A stretch of 40,519 nucleotides of DNA from a virus (taxonomy: Duplodnaviria > Heunggongvirae > Uroviricota > Caudoviricetes): IMG/VR virus record IMGVR_UViG_2529293139_000011, one strand, 5' to 3'. This document shows, one piece after another, positions 2,919-38,145 of this stretch. The notes under the pieces were generated by a model, which saw only the letters and a list, made by a program, of their open reading frames with translations, was not told where the DNA came from and did not search any database. Every line of letters begins with the position of its first letter. Position 1 is the stretch's first letter. Position numbers and translations under genes: made by a program.

Positions 2919-3841
2919 AGATATCTCTTGTAGTTCCTGTCTTCAATGAAGAAGAAACGATACCAATTTTCTATAAAGCGGTACGTGAATTCGAAGAGTT
3001 GAAGCCATATGAAGTGGAAATTGTTTTCATAAATGACGGAAGCAAAGACGCTACGGAGTCAATCATTAACGCTCTGGCTGTTTCAGATCCTCTAGTGGTT
3101 CCGCTGTCATTTACACGAAACTTTGGTAAAGAACCAGCATTGTTTGCAGGGTTAGACCATGCAACAGGAGATGCTGTAATTCCAATTGATGTTGACCTGC
3201 AAGATCCGATTGAGGTTATTCCCCATCTGATTGAAAAGTGGCGGGCAGGCGCTGATATGGTGCTTGCTAAGCGATCAGACCGCTCAACCGATGGTCGTCT
3301 GAAGCGAAAAACTGCTGAGTGGTTCTATAAGCTCCACAACAAAATAAGCAATCCAAAGATCGAGGAAAATGTTGGTGATTTCCGGTTAATGAACCGTGAA
3401 GTTGTCGAAAATATTAAGCTCATGCAAGAACGCAACCTATTCATGAAGGGCGTACTGAGTTGGGTTGGAGGAAAGACTGATGTTGTAGAATATGTTCGCG
3501 CCGAACGCGTGGCGGGCAGCACTAAATTCAATGGCTGGAAATTGTGGAATCTAGCGCTTGAAGGGATAACAAGCTTTTCTACTTTCCCACTTCGTATGTG
3601 GACATATATCGGATTTGTTGTTGCAGCAGCTTCATTCTTCTATGGAGCATGGATGATTGCAGATAAAATACTCTGGGGAAATGAAGTGCGTGGTTACCCA
3701 TCGCTACTTGTCTCCGTACTGTTTTTAGGTGGAATTCAATTAATTGGAATAGGCGTGCTCGGGGAGTACATAGGCAGAATTTATATAGAGGTTAAGAATA
3801 GACCTCGTTATATCATAAAGGGCAATAAAAATGATATTTAG
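2915..3841 (+). CDS. gtrB: Bactoprenol glucosyltransferase GtrB (GT2 family)
   Basis: 308-aa [23 protein letters not shown]... with GT2 DXD-type motifs and C-terminal TM helices; overlaps gtrA and the following gene. Confidence 0.85.
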
Positions 3842-5510
3842 GAACAGACATACTCTTTTATCTATATTCGCTATTTTCATGTTGGTATTTCTTGTTGCAT
3901 TAAATACACCAATGCACTCTGATGACTATAGTTATTACTCACGAGGATTGGGGCTTGATGCGCACATTGCAAATTATATGCACTGGAGTGGGAGGATTGT
4001 AGCAGATTACGTATCTACCGGGATGTTGTCGATTGAGGATCATACCCTTAAGGCCCTCGTCAACTCTATAGGTGTAACATCACTTATTGTTCTCATTGCT
4101 GCAATACCTTCTCAATTATGTAAAGTTGAAATCAAACCATTAGTATTAATTGTTGTTTTTGCTTTATATTGGTCATGTAACCCAAATCTAGGACAGAACT
4201 CGTTCTGGGTTGTAGGAAGCGCGAATTACGCCTGGACTACACTATTTGTTTTATGTTTCATCTATTATTTTTTGAAGTGGATTGAAAACCAAAATACGAC
4301 TAAGATAGTTTCGTTATTTATTCTTGGTTTAATAGCAGGCTGCTCAAACGAAAATACCGCTGTAACTATAGCTCCATTGACAGTTGTTGTTGCAATCTCT
4401 TTATTTTACTTTAAAAAAATAAGATGGCAATATGCTTTATTACCAACGATCGGTGTCATTATTGGTTCTGTGACAATTATTCTTTCACCAGGAAACGCAG
4501 CAAGGGCGAAAAATATTGCGTTCGTTGATTGGTATGCAATGCCGTTAGGTGAGAGGCTAATAGAGCACTTTACTCATAGGTTTTGGTTTGCTTTCACATC
4601 CGCATGGCTTGTAATTGGGCTGCTGGTTATCTGTTCAATTGCATCATATGTTTTTTATCGAAGAAAACTACTTTCATTTTCTAATGCTTCATTATTTGCA
4701 TCAATCTCGTTTTTTGGGTGCTTCCTGCTTGCTAATGCCGCATTGGCTGGTGCTCCATACACTCCTCCGCGATCTTTTAGCATAGGGTTCTGTTTCCTTT
4801 TACTTTGCTTCTCCTGCCTTTTCACTTGGATAAATCAACAGGATGGCAAGATAAAAAGCACTTTATCTTACGCTATTTTATTAGTTTCACTAATTAATTT
4901 CATTGGCTCATATTATTTCGTTTATTCCGCTTATAAAAGAACAACGATCCAGCAGACACTTAGGGAGTCGTCGATTAGAGATGGTAGGAGCAATGGTTTG
5001 AAATCTATTTCTATCCCTGATTATTTCTTTACGCATCTTAAGAATTATAACGATAGATATGATAGATTTCATAATGAGGGAAGCTATGGCAGATACTATG
5101 GTATATCCAAAGCGCCATTACAAAAAGCAACCTTTGACTATTCTGGCATAGCATATAAACCAGTTTACAGTAAAGATGTGCCTCTATACGAGCGCGATAA
5201 TATCAAGTCTATTTTCATGTCACCGCAACAACCATTCATCAGTGGGACATTGATACTTGAGATTTCTAACAATATTGATGGGATTTTATCTCGTGATGGT
5301 GGCGTGAAAATCTTCTTACATATTTTAAAATCAGATGGAAGCATCGTTAACAAGGACTTTTTCCCAACTACTATAGAGCTTAATGGTAGATTCTATGCTG
5401 GAGTTGATCTTTCTGGAGTTGATATAAATGACATTAATAGCCTATTGATTGGTACATTCAATATTCATACGCGTCATCGATATACACAAACACAGATAAA
5501 GATTAATTAA
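3831..5510 (+). CDS. Serotype-specific O-antigen glucosyltransferase, GtrC-like (polytopic membrane N-terminal part plus a soluble C-terminal domain)
   Basis: 559-aa ORF in the third position of the gtr operon; strongly hydrophobic N-terminal ~380 aa, AT-rich codon usage typical of acquired gtrC genes; this family is highly variable so exact specificity is unknown. Confidence 0.65.
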
Positions 5511-33464: not shown

Positions 33465-33770
33465 ATGACAGTAGTCATTACATATCTGGCTGACGATAAC
33501 GCCAGAAATCGCCGCAGAGCACGCAGACAGGCTCAACGTGAACAGGCAATGCAAGAACAGCGACTGGCGCGAAAGATTGCGCTAAAGCTCTCTGGTTGCG
33601 TCAGAGCAGATAAAGCAGCATCACTCGGAAGCCTTCGCTGCAAGAAGGCAGAAGAAATCGAGCGTAAACAGAATCGTATTTACTACAGCAAGCCACGCAG
33701 TGAAATGGGTGTGACTTGCTCAGGCCGCCAGAAGCGACGCGGAAAATCAATTCCAGCTTATTACGATTGA
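33465..33770 (+). CDS. N: N-type antitermination protein
   Basis: 101-aa ORF with an N-terminal arginine-rich motif (NARNRRRARRQAQREQ) and a C-terminus (ERKQNRIYYSKPRSEMGVTCSGRQKRRGKSIP) resembling lambda N; preceded by GGAGG. Confidence 0.8.
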   Translation: MTVVITYLADDNARNRRRARRQAQREQAMQEQRLARKIALKLSGCVRADKAASLGSLRCKKAEEIERKQNRIYYSKPRSEMGVTCSGRQKRRGKSIPAYYD

Positions 33771-33951: not shown

Positions 33952-34038
33952 ATGGAAGAAGAATTTGAAGAGTTCGAAGAGCATCCGCAGGATGTGATGG
34001 AACAATACCAGGACTATCCGTATGACTACGACTATTGA
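33952..34038 (+). CDS. Very small, highly acidic hypothetical peptide
   Basis: 28-aa ORF MEEEFEEFEEHPQDVMEQYQDYPYDYDY with GAGGTGAG upstream. Confidence 0.25.
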   Translation: MEEEFEEFEEHPQDVMEQYQDYPYDYDY

Positions 34039-34222
34039 TAAGAATCAATGGTGTGGACAATTCAAACGATGCAATGGATGCAAGTTGCAATCGGAATGCA
34101 TGGTTAAGCCTGAAGAAATGTTTCCTGTAATGGAAGATGGGAAATATGTCGATAAATGGGCAATACGAACGACGGCAATGATTGCCAGAGAACTTGGTAA
34201 ACTGAACAACAAGGCTGCCTGA
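34022..34222 (+). CDS. Small Cys-rich hypothetical protein
   Basis: 66-aa ORF with CGQFKRCNGCKLQSEC; early-left operon. Confidence 0.4.
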   Translation: MTTTIDKNQWCGQFKRCNGCKLQSECMVKPEEMFPVMEDGKYVDKWAIRTTAMIARELGKLNNKAA

Positions 34223-34261
34223 TGGTGGCCTTTATTTTTGGCATAAACAACAGAGGCTAAC

Positions 34262-34791: not shown

Positions 34792-34852
34792 GGAGCAATG
34801 TCGCTCGTAACTAAACAGGAGCCGACTTGTTCTGGTTATTTGAAATCTTCTT

Positions 34853-34880
34853 TGCCCTCCAGTGTGAGGGCAATTTTTTT
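34853..34880 (+). terminator. Intrinsic terminator in the early-left operon (TGCCCTC-cagtgt-GAGGGCA followed by ATTTTTTT)
   Basis: 7-bp GC stem plus T-run about 12 nt upstream of the next gene's RBS. Confidence 0.6.
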
Positions 34881-34892
34881 GACGGAGGATAT

Positions 34893-35861
34893 ATGAGTGA
34901 AGTAACAGATTTAGTTGTTATTGAAAAAGCAAATGCAATGACTGTATTTCAGTCTGCCGACCAGATTGAAGAAATCCTTCAAAAGGTTGAACGTGAAGTT
35001 ATGTCCTTTGTGCCTGATATCACAACGGCAAAGGGCAGAAAGGAGATCGCTTCTCTGGCGTATAAAGTTGCGCAGACGAAAACATATCTCGATGGTCTTG
35101 GCAAAGACCTTGTTGCTGAACTGAAGGAAATTCCAAAGCTAATTGATGCTAACCGCAAGACAGTGCGTGATCGCCTTGATGAGCTGAAAGCCAAGGCGCG
35201 CCAGCCTCTTACTGATTATGAGGAAGAACAGGCGCGGATTAAAGCCGAAGAAGAAGCTAAGGCAGCAGCTGAAGCTCTCGCAAAGCAAATTGAGTCTGAC
35301 CATGAAATAGCTATTTTGATGGATCGCGAATTTGACCGCCAAAGAGAAGAGGCAAGACTCAAAGCGGAGCAGGAAAAGCGAGAGCATGAAGAACGATTAA
35401 AAAGAGAAGCTGAAGAGAAAGCCAGAGCAGAAGCCGAAGCAAAGGCAAAAGCCGAAATTGAAGCAGCAGCAAGGCGAGAAGCAGAAGCTAAGGCCGCAGC
35501 GGAACGTGCAGAGCGTGAACGCATTGAAGCCGAGCAACGAGCACAGCGCGAAGCAAAAGAGGCAGCAGAACGAGCTGAAAGAGAAAAGCAGGCAGCAATT
35601 GAAGCAGAACGCAGAAAAGCACAGGAGGAGGCTGAACGAATCCGGCGCGAGGCTGAAGCAAAAGAGCAAGCCAGAATAGCAGAAGAAAAAAGAATCAAGG
35701 AAGAAGAAGAGCGTAGAGCAAAGGATAAAGCTCACCGGAAAGAAGTAAATAACAAAATACTTGCTGACCTTATCAAGGTTGGCGCATCAGAAGATGTTGC
35801 TAAAAATATCATAACAGCCATCGTAAAAGGCGAAGTATTCGCAACAAAAATAACCTACTAA
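34893..35861 (+). CDS. Coiled-coil protein with a long low-complexity Ala/Glu/Lys/Arg repeat region; function unknown
   Basis: ORF 34827-35861; start placed at ATG 34893 after GGAGG; central ~180 aa are EAEAKAKAE / RREAEAK-type repeats. Confidence 0.6.
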   Translation: MSEVTDLVVIEKANAMTVFQSADQIEEILQKVEREVMSFVPDITTAKGRKEIASLAYKVAQTKTYLDGLGKDLVAELKEIPKLIDANRKTVRDRLDELKAKARQPLTDYEEEQARIKAEEEAKAAAEALAKQIESDHEIAILMDREFDRQREEARLKAEQEKREHEERLKREAEEKARAEAEAKAKAEIEAAARREAEAKAAAERAERERIEAEQRAQREAKEAAERAEREKQAAIEAERRKAQEEAERIRREAEAKEQARIAEEKRIKEEEERRAKDKAHRKEVNNKILADLIKVGASEDVAKNIITAIVKGEVFATKITY

Positions 35862-35885: not shown

Positions 35886-36017
35886 ATGATTTACGCAATC
35901 GCGGGAGGCGCTCGCATGGGTGCCTTCCAACTAAATGAATCTTTACTTGAACGAATCACCCGTAAATTACGTGACGGATGGAAAAGAGTTGAGGTCTTAT
36001 TATGCGCAATGAAATAG
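35886..36017 (+). CDS. Small hypothetical protein
   Basis: 43-aa ORF with AAGGAA upstream, translated by hand. Confidence 0.25.
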   Translation: MIYAIAGGARMGAFQLNESLLERITRKLRDGWKRVEVLLCAMK

Positions 36018-36154
36018 CCATCAATCACCAGATGCTTCGTGCAGCACAAAACAAAGCAGTAATAGCCAGATTTATTGGTGATTCAAAAATGTGGCTTGAA
36101 GCAAATAAAGAGATGAAATCAGCTATCAACCTTCCGTGGTATCGCAGGAAATGA
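36002..36154 (+). CDS. Small hypothetical protein
   Basis: 50-aa ORF MRNEIAINHQMLRAAQNKAVIARFIGDSKMWLEANKEMKSAINLPWYRRK, translated by hand. Confidence 0.25.
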   Translation: MRNEIAINHQMLRAAQNKAVIARFIGDSKMWLEANKEMKSAINLPWYRRK

Positions 36155-36309
36155 GTTTTACAGATAACTGGTCAGACGAAGAATTCATTCGTCAGATGAA
36201 AGAATTAATCGGTAACGAAGGAGATATTCATGTCACTTGCAACCACAGTGAAGGAGAGCAAGTTACAGAGACGCATGTACACGCAGAAAGCTCTCTGGTA
36301 TCGCCATAA
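36151..36309 (+). CDS. Small hypothetical protein
   Basis: 52-aa ORF MSFTDNWSDEEFIRQMKELIGNEGDIHVTCNHSEGEQVTETHVHAESSLVSP, translated by hand. Confidence 0.25.
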   Translation: MSFTDNWSDEEFIRQMKELIGNEGDIHVTCNHSEGEQVTETHVHAESSLVSP

Positions 36310-36410
36310 TGGCGACCGCGAAGGAATGCGGGTATGCCTTAATTTGTCCCGAGTCGAAGTATTAAATCAGCGTTATTTTCTTGGGCCGTGTCCATTCTGA
36401 GATCAAACAT

Positions 36411-37016
36411 ATGAGCAAAGAATTTTATGCAAGGCTGGCAGCCATTCAGGAGAATCTGAACGCGCCAAAGAATCAGTACAACTCATTCGGTAAATATAAA
36501 TACAGAAGCTGCGAAGACATTCTTGAAGGCGTTAAGCCGTTACTGAATGGCCTGTTTTTATCAATCAGCGATGAAGTTGTGTTGATTGGAGAACGGTATT
36601 ACGTGAAAGCAACGGCAACTATTACTGATGGCGAAAACAGTCATACGGCAACCGCTCTTGCACGAGAGGAAGAAAGCAAGAAAGGAATGGATTCTGCACA
36701 AGTTACTGGAGCTACAAGCTCTTATGCACGCAAGTATTGCCTCAATGGTTTGTTCGGCATTGATGATGCGAAAGATGCAGATACCGACGAGCATAAACAT
36801 CAGCAGAACGCAGCAGCAAAGCAATCAAAGCCATCACCTACACCTGAACAGGTTCTAAAAGCATTCACTGACGCAGCATTGCAGAAAAACACCGTGGAAG
36901 AGCTTAAACAGGCGTTCGCCAAAGCGTGGAAGATGCTCGAAGGCACACCGGAGCAGCACAAAGCGCAGGACGTTTACAACATCAGACGAGACGAATTAGA
37001 AGGAGCGGCTGCTTAA
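36411..37016 (+). CDS. erf: ERF-family single-strand annealing recombinase (P22 Erf-like)
   Basis: ORF 36381-37016; start placed at ATG 36411 (MSKEFYARLAAIQENLNAPKNQYNSFGKYKYRSCEDILEG...); N-terminal domain recognised as Erf. Confidence 0.8.
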   Translation: MSKEFYARLAAIQENLNAPKNQYNSFGKYKYRSCEDILEGVKPLLNGLFLSISDEVVLIGERYYVKATATITDGENSHTATALAREEESKKGMDSAQVTGATSSYARKYCLNGLFGIDDAKDADTDEHKHQQNAAAKQSKPSPTPEQVLKAFTDAALQKNTVEELKQAFAKAWKMLEGTPEQHKAQDVYNIRRDELEGAAA

Positions 37017-37399
37017 TGGCACATTCGATTACTGTAAGACTAAACAAGCCCGCAAGAGAGTTTCAGGCCGGGGAAAATATCGGATTCAACATCCGTGCTG
37101 GCGTTCAGTATTACGATCGCCAGACAAAAAAGAAAGAATGGACAAACTACAGCGCCGTTGTATTTGCCAAGCCGGGAGCGCAAGCGGATTACTACCGTAG
37201 TGTTCTTGTTGAAGGTTGCATTGTGGAAATTACCGGAGAAAACATCAGGGTTGATGTTTATCATGGGCAAAATGGTCAATCAATCACTCTTGAATTACTG
37301 AATGCAAAGATTGGATTTGCAACTTCAGGAAACAGCCAACAGCAGCAAAGTAGCAATCATCAAAATAATCCTGAATACGACGATTCCATCCCATTCTGA
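37016..37399 (+). CDS. ssb: Single-stranded DNA-binding protein
   Basis: ORF 36926-37399; ATG at 37016 overlaps the erf stop (TAATG); OB-fold-like N-terminus, Gln-rich linker and acidic C-terminal tail ending DDSIPF. Confidence 0.7.
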   Translation: MAHSITVRLNKPAREFQAGENIGFNIRAGVQYYDRQTKKKEWTNYSAVVFAKPGAQADYYRSVLVEGCIVEITGENIRVDVYHGQNGQSITLELLNAKIGFATSGNSQQQQSSNHQNNPEYDDSIPF

Positions 37400-37422
37400 T
37401 TTAGAAAAATAAGGATTTAATT

Positions 37423-37716
37423 ATGCCAGCGCCTCTGTATGGTGCGGACGACGCGCGCCGCTGTTCCGGCAATTCCGTATCGGAGGTGCTGGATAAATTC
37501 AGAAAAAACTACGATCGGATAATGTCGCTACCGCAGGAAACGAAAGAGGAAAAGGAATTTCGCCATTGTATATGGCTTGCAGAGAAAGAAGAACGCGAGC
37601 GAATTTACCAGACATCAATCCGACCATTCCGCAAAGCCACATATACCCACTTCCCTGAAATTGACCCGCGCCTGCGTAATTACCGATCACGCTATGGCGC
37701 TATCAGTAATGACTGA
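37423..37716 (+). CDS. Hypothetical protein
   Basis: 97-aa ORF with AAGGA upstream. Confidence 0.45.
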
Positions 37717-37726
37717 GGAATTTACC

Positions 37727-37894
37727 ATGAGAGGACTTGCATACAATCCCGGCATTCTTCCGGCAGAAATGATTATTCGCCAACGCGTAAAGCCAATGCC
37801 ATCGAGAGAGGAATTGCTTAAGAGAAATTCTTTTCCGTCAGTGAATCAAAACAAATATCTGAATGCGATGTGGCGTAAAGGAGGCAAGCAGTGA
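37727..37894 (+). CDS. Small hypothetical protein
   Basis: 55-aa ORF from the internal ATG at 37727 (within ORF 37577-37894) preceded by GAGGAA. Confidence 0.35.
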
Positions 37895-38145
37895 GTAATT
37901 CAGCACGACTACAGCTTGCTTTTTCACCGCTATCAAAAACTATCATGCTGGCAAAAATGCGCGATGTTGAAGGTGGACGTATGCGCGTTGGCAATGATCC
38001 AGGTCGTGATGTTACCAATGAGGCTGCTCAATTGGTGTGGCAACTGGTCATGGCTGAAGGTGGTGAGATAGTGTGGGAGCTGGATGATGGTTCTCGCATG
38101 GTGTTGAAGGCAGAAAAGCAGGAGGCAACCAGTGAGCAAGATTGA
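37891..38145 (+). CDS. Hypothetical protein
   Basis: 84-aa ORF with GTG start preceded by AAGGAGG. Confidence 0.45.

Follow-up and report, generated by a model that had tools for sequence, protein, structure and literature searches.

The virus window analysed here, a stretch of 40,519 nucleotides (nt; IMG/VR record IMGVR_UViG_2529293139_000011, Caudoviricetes), holds a gene for a protein of 322 amino acids (aa) that belongs to the Sf6 gene 33 / D3 gp53 family (PHROG 1376). The open reading frame (ORF), read directly from the + strand, runs from ATG 34893 to TAA 35859-35861, and the coding sequence (34893-35861, +), assigned to the family from profile and homologue matches, has exactly the coordinates given for it in the original prediction. 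A Shine-Dalgarno sequence, GGAGGA (34884-34889, +), was read off the sequence 3 nt before the ATG. Position 34893 was taken as the start because a longer frame from TTG 34827 would cross a terminator and all homologues begin MSE(V/I), and the longer ORF was rejected.

Comparison with gene 33 of phage Sf6 gave 18 nucleotide differences, 17 of them synonymous and one a replacement (E270D), when random changes in the gene would be synonymous in only 22% of cases (P ~1e-10). Judged by this substitution pattern, ORF 34893-35861 is a real protein-coding gene, far beyond chance. The long charged tract of the protein is also constrained at the protein level, since 12 of the 18 differences fall there (11 of the 12 synonymous). 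Two antisense ORFs cross the charged tract (35216-35698, - strand, 160 aa; 35397-35735, - strand, 112 aa), with products rich in Ser, Ala, Cys, Phe and Leu that come from GAA/GCA-type codons read backwards. They were dismissed as by-products of GAA/GCA-rich codons, and are probably the reason why some phage records annotate two "hypothetical proteins" at the locus.

The protein was found by tblastn in Sf6 (gene 33), mEp043, mEp234, IME10, HF4s, HK544, Sf101 and other phages. The Sf6 gene 33 protein (AAQ12223), to which no function is assigned, is essentially no different: it also has 322 aa, carries the one conservative change E270D, and is encoded at the same position between tL2A and cIII. 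The match to phrog_1376 was full-length (E = 7.8e-110; residues 1-322 against profile positions 1-362), with function unassigned in PHROGs; two further PHROGs (17211 and 21365) correspond to split halves of the protein, and appear to have been built from split halves of pseudogene copies. With residues 1-165 as query against 1.8 billion proteins, phmmer returned 5,025 cluster representatives at E ≤ 1e-3 and 3,574 at E ≤ 1e-10. Phage homologues came from Pseudomonas, Vibrio, Klebsiella, Erwinia, Acinetobacter, Shewanella, Sinorhizobium and others, and the gene was carried by 530 of 5,426 complete E. coli genomes (~10%). Pfam, NCBIfam and PADLOC scans of the protein, and a Pfam scan of 72 relatives, gave nothing meaningful, with only weak low-complexity matches (LmuB, E = 0.02), and PDB searches, by single sequence or by family profile, returned no match below E = 0.018. 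The sequence is already known, as that of a widespread, uncharacterised early protein of lambda-like phages.

Public records name family members inconsistently, and the naming is therefore driven by low complexity. TolA is the commonest name; others are cell envelope biogenesis protein TolA, antitoxin, putative tail-fibre protein, fibrinogen-binding protein and integrase, and also major outer membrane lipoprotein, IgA-specific serine endopeptidase, ribosome recycling factor and colicin import membrane protein.

The family alignment comprised 72 relatives that were 35-59% identical, and the three-part architecture proposed from the sequence was borne out by it. Residues 1-110 (34893-35222, +) form a conserved helical head of ordinary composition, with the motif PDxSTxKGRKxIAS...SKTYLDxxGKxLVAExK, which the alignment extends as xxPKxIDAxRK...PLTxWExEQ into the segment that follows, and R49, K63, G70 and R88 were invariant in the 72 sequences. 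Residues 111-165 (35223-35387, +) form a helix with the motifs PLTxWExEQ and IESDHEhAhLM, which are kept in the enterobacterial and Vibrio subfamily. In the homologues of D3, JBD44 and Acinetobacter, IESDHEhAhLM is replaced by an insertion of ~50 residues (…GIDQIKMRLECRDLDSTELKANIEWLEG…; alignment columns ~113-170), so the Pseudomonas/Acinetobacter subfamily differs from the enterobacterial/Vibrio one at the junction of head and tract. Residues 166-280 (35388-35732, +) are 89% E/A/R/K and resemble, by composition and predicted helix, an ER/K single helix. The ~180-aa tract of the original prediction corresponds to residues 106 to 288, as delimited by 20-residue windows with ≥ 80% A/E/K/R/Q/D. 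Residues 281-322 (35733-35858, +) form a distinct tail conserved across the family, a C-terminal mini-domain opening at H281 (H281 ... G-x-S/T-E-x-x-A-K ... I-x-Y-COOH) with the motif H...G(I/L)(S/T)ExxAKxIIxAIxxGxIPxVxIxY. Head (~130 aa) and tail (~42 aa) were constant in length across the family. The tract ranged from 47 to 162 aa in the 72 homologues (median 104, standard deviation 17) and diverged in sequence; its composition was 74-94% A/E/K/R/Q/D in 12 sampled homologues.

An AlphaFold2 model built with the 72-sequence alignment had a mean predicted local distance difference test (pLDDT) score of 86, with helices at residues 12-20, 22-38, 46-76, 81-295 and 300-311. The helix at 81-295 was modelled as continuous (pLDDT above 90) and ~32 nm long. 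The head, which had been described as globular-looking over ~110 aa, is in the model a generic three-helix bundle (12-38, 46-76 and the start of 81-295) whose last helix runs on into the tract. Foldseek against viral models gave significant matches only within the protein's own family.

The description of the protein as a coiled coil became doubtful. Strongly hydrophobic residues occupied at most 25% of heptad a/d positions in the best register (residues 143-282), Ile and Leu made up 7 of the 115 residues of the tract, and opposite-charge pairs at i/i+3 and i/i+4 were enriched (0.57 per residue vs 0.36 in shuffles; z = 4.7). Because of the few hydrophobic a/d positions and the enriched charge pairs, the tract has the look of a single helix of the ER/K type and not of a heptad coiled coil, and Ala-rich packing or oligomerisation may occur. 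The tract shares with TolA domain II and with ER/K single alpha-helix domains a long Ala/Glu/Lys/Arg-rich helix and enriched i/i+4 charge pairs; compared with ER/K domains, its single-helix state is a prediction.

The gene is preceded by an intrinsic terminator (34852-34880, +), a homologue of the lambda tL2 region (tL2A in Sf6), with a stem-loop of 8 bp and 5 G-C pairs at 34852-34873 and a T7 run ending at 34880. Its folding energy was -13.2 kcal/mol, and an equally stable fold occurred in 13 of 200 shuffles, so the energy alone is unremarkable. The ~95 nt around it are almost identical to lambda just upstream of ea10 and to Sf6, where tL2A is annotated; the tL2 region of lambda is the stretch between ral and ea10, and the 34852-34880 region is homologous to it. 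An N gene lies upstream of the 322-aa gene (per the CUS-3 annotation), and no promoter-like site was found on the same strand between 33270 and 36157. In lambda, transcription past tL1 and tL2 requires N. Because of the tL2-like terminator, the upstream N gene and the lack of a promoter-like site in that interval, N-dependent early expression of the 322-aa gene is plausible. The original prediction had placed expression probably only under N antitermination; the terminator is real, but "only" is stronger than the data. A second terminator-like hairpin (34211-34232, +; 9 pairs followed by TATTTTT), ~640 nt before the tL2-like terminator, overlaps the end of ral.

Homology to lambda extends to ~12 nt before the start codon and restarts within cIII. 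In lambda the same slot, between tL2 and cIII, is filled by ea10 (122 aa), and no sequence similarity was detected between ea10 and the 322-aa protein (E = 1.5). Both genes stand in a slot flanked by homologous tL2 and cIII sequence, whereas the ea10 product, unlike the 322-aa protein, has no charged helix. Because the flanks are homologous to lambda while ea10 is unrelated, the 322-aa gene is, on sequence comparison, a mosaic alternative to ea10.

Gene order upstream was an N-like gene (33465-33770), ral (34022-34222), two small ORFs, the tL2-like terminator and the 322-aa gene. Downstream followed cIII, kil, two small ORFs, Erf, an HK97 gp40-like ORF, Abc2 and an Ea22-like protein. The gene is an early gene in the leftward (PL) operon of a P22-like/lambdoid prophage. 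It had been placed upstream of erf, which is correct but loose: cIII (35886-36017, +, directly downstream of the 322-aa gene), kil (36002-36154, +, directly downstream) and two small ORFs intervene before erf (36381-37016, +). The recombination module (36381-37716), ~0.5 kb downstream, consists of Erf, an SSB-like ORF (127 aa, 37016-37399, +) and the anti-RecBCD protein Abc2 (37423-37716, +). No Pfam match was found for the 127-aa ORF that follows erf; in HK633 the counterpart is annotated as resembling HK97 gp40, a protein that Zheng et al. 2025 classed from its predicted fold as a divergent SSB ("SSB-1b"). Two chimeric E. coli proteins were also seen, one joining residues 1-80 of the 322-aa protein to the C-terminus of Abc2 and the other joining its residues 1-71 to a DUF7446 ORF (the equivalent of 37891-38145). 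They look like 2.4-3 kb deletions that took out cIII, kil and erf in decaying prophages.

The DNA of the tract had been described as internally repetitive and able to expand or contract by recombination. Tandem Repeats Finder reported only two weak arrays in the gene, direct-repeat families were 63-76% identical, and the longest exact direct repeat was 12 nt. Counts of repeated 9- to 12-mers matched those of codon-shuffled versions (11-mers, 5 vs 4.2; 182 of 500 shuffles at or above the observed count). The repetitiveness is compositional, no higher than the codon-shuffled expectation, but contraction at repeats was found in two alleles. A 245-aa allele, carried by at least 24 contigs that represent three mosaic backgrounds, has lost exactly 231 nt in frame between the GAAGCTAAGGC-GCAGC copies near 35252 and 35483; the two copies form an imperfect direct-repeat pair (GAAGCTAAGGC[A/C]GCAGC, 35252-35503, +) 231 nt apart, at which a crossover gives this allele. 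A 300-aa allele in phage HK633 has lost in frame a 66-nt segment (35496-35561, +) bounded by the repeat GCAGC(G/A)GAACG. The suggested comparison of repeat length among related copies did not reveal a variable locus: in the sample listed from the E. coli copies (about 500, in 530 genomes), most had 969 nt. No exact junction of the 245- or 300-aa deletion was found in the 5,426 complete E. coli genomes, in a search blurred by the joining of matched pieces. Gene length is otherwise stable, and in-frame deletions at short repeats are rare. A study of Sf6 evolution describes deletions in the nin region and not in the 322-aa gene (PMC5630979). Three copies were frameshifted. In CUS-3 (positions 3021-3990 of the compared stretch) and E. 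coli PMV-1, a single T is inserted after gene position 336 (GAA-T-CAG, no homopolymer), and the PMV-1 RefSeq record flags the gene as "frameshifted"; the UPEC129 copy has a 14-nt deletion.

Gene neighbourhoods were compared at 80 IMG/VR loci whose proteins had 51-60% identity, by classifying the first two downstream ORFs of ≥ 140 aa. RecT followed by a YqaJ exonuclease occurred at 36 loci, Erf first and then an SSB, methylase or other ORF at 21, and at least one Sak4-like AAA_24 ATPase at 8. Any annealing protein (RecT, Erf or Sak4-like) was found at 71 of the 80 loci, and any recombination-type protein at 79. The gene was associated with three unrelated annealing-protein families, and the varied annealing-protein neighbours therefore point to a host or DNA target rather than to a specific phage partner. 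Both in D3 and in JBD44, 8 nt separate the end of the homologue from the Erf gene, and a YqaJ-type exonuclease comes next. The homologue of an Acinetobacter phage is followed within ~10 nt by an unannotated 252-aa ORF and then by exo, and Erwinia phage Midgardsormr38 has, in this order, the homologue, cIII, two small ORFs, RecT and exo. Phages of Firmicutes carry Mu Gam-like, DUF2483, DUF1351 or Gp157 genes in the position before Erf or Sak4, and analogous functions were inferred for these genes (PMC8093625).

The homologue with a reported phenotype is gp53 of Pseudomonas phage D3, and the Sf6 record carries the remark "similar to phage D3 gene Orf53". Identity was 52% in the head (E = 1e-37) and 46% overall, and alignment was seen in the charged tract and in the C-terminal domain (DKAHKKAINNEALAALI...ITINY) as well. 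D3 gp53 has the head, charged helix and conserved C-terminal domain of the 322-aa protein and is likewise encoded upstream of Erf; unlike it, D3 gp53 has the ~50-aa insertion in place of the IESDHE segment, and its gene abuts erf-exo, without cIII or kil. Hong et al. (bioRxiv 2025, PMC12407980) reported that D3 escapes Gabija only via deletions that remove orf52-orf66, and that orf53 alone is enough for Gabija to target D3 escape phages again. In the same study, the gene also cross-complemented an escaper of JBD30 and made a transduced cos plasmid sensitive. In Gabija licensing, orf53 acted like Exo-Erf and Mu Gam. Escape from Gabija needed RecBCD, and licensing factors were proposed to prevent RecBCD loading on phage DNA (PMC12407980). 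By transfer from its homologue D3 gp53, the 322-aa protein may share the Gabija-licensing phenotype, which hints at a role at DNA ends.

A 52-aa ORF in the kil-erf interval (36151-36309, +; MSFTDNWSDEEFIRQMKELIGNEGDIHVTCNHSEGEQVTETHVHA...) is identical over its first 45 residues to HK75 gp33. HK75 "Gp33" was reported to be sufficient for P2 OLD toxicity and was proposed as a new RecBCD inhibitor (bioRxiv 10.64898/2026.07.10.737580). It was rejected as direct evidence on the Sf6 gene 33 family: it is the product of an ORF of 56 aa that lies between kil and erf, and the 322-aa gene is missing from HK75.

Because of the synteny and of the one preprint on a homologue, the 322-aa protein is tentatively read, with a probability judged somewhat short of even, as an accessory factor of the DNA-end/recombination programme that alters the access of RecBCD to phage DNA ends. 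N antitermination would carry transcription through tL2, so that the gene would be read early. The third helix of the head would continue as a long ER/K helix acting as a spacer, free in sequence and bounded in length. Head and tail would contact DNA or a host partner, with the helix keeping them apart, and the protein would alter the fate of linear phage DNA ends, most likely by restricting how RecBCD loads or acts. Both the spacer role of the helix and the mechanism involving RecBCD and DNA ends are what we infer from these data.

Several observations weigh against an action on RecBCD. The phage already encodes a known RecBCD modifier, Abc2, and the head of the protein carries a net negative charge (-2), which is not what simple DNA binding would suggest. 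Fold searches yielded only generic helical bundles. The gene is dispensable for prophage carriage, as it is frameshifted in CUS-3, PMV-1 and UPEC129. The identical 245-aa protein adjoins Rad52-type or ERF-type annealing proteins, with different SSBs, and has no specific phage partner. The sole functional lead for the family comes from D3 gp53, which is 46% identical and stems from another genus; its molecular activity was not defined, and only 3 of 6 licensing factors were counted as end-binding systems (PMC12407980). Synteny among lambdoid phages may be no more than a consequence of the fixed order of genes in the PL operon; a Rec module is present anyway in ~78% of enterobacterial lambdoid phages, and the 2025 survey of lambdoid Rec modules leaves the gene out as a component (PMC12315714).

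The protein might instead be a scaffold or mediator within the recombination module, tethering the annealing protein, SSB or replisome components without antagonising RecBCD. The tight synteny with RecT, Erf or Sak4 plus an exonuclease or SSB fits this, as do the Firmicutes genes that occupy the analogous slot (PMC8093625), and a long rigid helix with two end domains would suit a tether. A scaffold is nevertheless unlikely: the identical protein was found with non-homologous annealing proteins and different SSBs, and Gabija licensing by D3 orf53 needs no Exo-Erf and also takes place in a heterologous phage (PMC12407980). Somewhat less likely still is a host-takeover or lysogeny-timing factor acting with cIII and kil (e.g., on FtsH, cell division or the envelope), unrelated to DNA ends. 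In enterobacterial phages the gene always forms one block with cIII and kil, and lambda ea10, the alternative occupant of the slot, is not recognised as a recombination gene. Conversely, neither cIII nor kil is annotated next to the gene in D3, JBD44 or the Acinetobacter phage; there the gene stands directly before Erf-exo (D3, JBD44) or before an unannotated ORF and exo (Acinetobacter phage), and the one known phenotype of the family concerns DNA targeting.

Three other readings were given little weight. Very distant homology to DUF1351 or Siphovirus Gp157, the two families with which a profile comparison had been proposed, is improbable and was largely refuted at the sequence-profile level. 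DUF1351 (PF07083) and Gp157 (PF05565) of Firmicutes phages are helical and lie just upstream of Erf, RecT or Sak4, and DUF1351 is also charged and of similar length (308 aa); unlike the 322-aa protein, both come from a different host phylum. None of the 72 family members matched PF07083 or PF05565 at E ≤ 0.01. The hhalign probability was below 1% in both cases: 0.4% against a DUF1351 profile that was shallow (5 sequences, from Oenococcus phage phi9805 gp48) and of limited power, and 0.5% against a Gp157 profile of 25 sequences (from Lactobacillus phage A2 ORF29). The only hhalign match to DUF1351 was a weak one of 10 columns, (K/S)AH(R/Q)K.VN(N/D), between residues 278-287 (35724-35753) and positions 245-254, and was not significant (E = 0.17). 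It falls at the conserved His that opens the C-terminal domain, right after the charged helix in both proteins. As far as sequence profiles can tell, DUF1351 and Gp157 are positional analogues and not detectable homologues. A contingency locus, in which frequent changes in tract length vary function, is very improbable. Two independent in-frame deletions at short repeats and the spread of the 245-aa allele agree with it, whereas the codon-shuffled level of repeats (longest exact repeat 12 nt, weak arrays only), the 969-nt length of most E. coli copies in the listed sample and the failure to find either deletion junction do not. A TolA-like cell-envelope protein has hardly any probability at all. 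The name TolA stands in RefSeq and phage records, and the original prediction had likened the tract to the TolA central domain; the domain II-like trait, a long Ala/Glu/Lys-rich predicted helix, is present as a compositional likeness only. The N-terminus (MSEVTDLVVIEKANAMTVFQSADQ) has no hydrophobic stretch that could be the domain I anchor, and no match to TolA domain III or to a TolA model was found in Pfam (E ≤ 1) or NCBIfam (E ≤ 0.1). The gene also lies in a phage early operon and not in tolQRA, and the same protein bears many unrelated names.

The family is very large, adjoins recombination genes of temperate phages across Proteobacteria, has no Pfam entry and is misnamed in records. A testable hypothesis follows from the homology of the enterobacterial members to D3 gp53, namely that Sf6 gp33 changes RecBCD access and licenses Gabija or OLD. 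In its widest form, which is possible but more doubtful than the action on DNA ends proposed above for the 322-aa protein, the Sf6 gp33 / D3 gp53 family would be an unrecognised, widespread class that keeps RecBCD away from linear phage DNA. Next to Gam, GamL, Abc2 and Mu Gam, it would make a fifth kind of Rec-module component, built as head, ruler and tail, and a trigger sensed by Gabija-type (perhaps OLD-type) defences in ~10% of E. coli strains and in many other Proteobacteria. If the hypothesis is not true, the gene is one more dispensable early accessory gene. If it is true, the family would be a new class among known RecBCD antagonists, and would help explain which lambdoid/P22-like phages are sensitive to Gabija or OLD.

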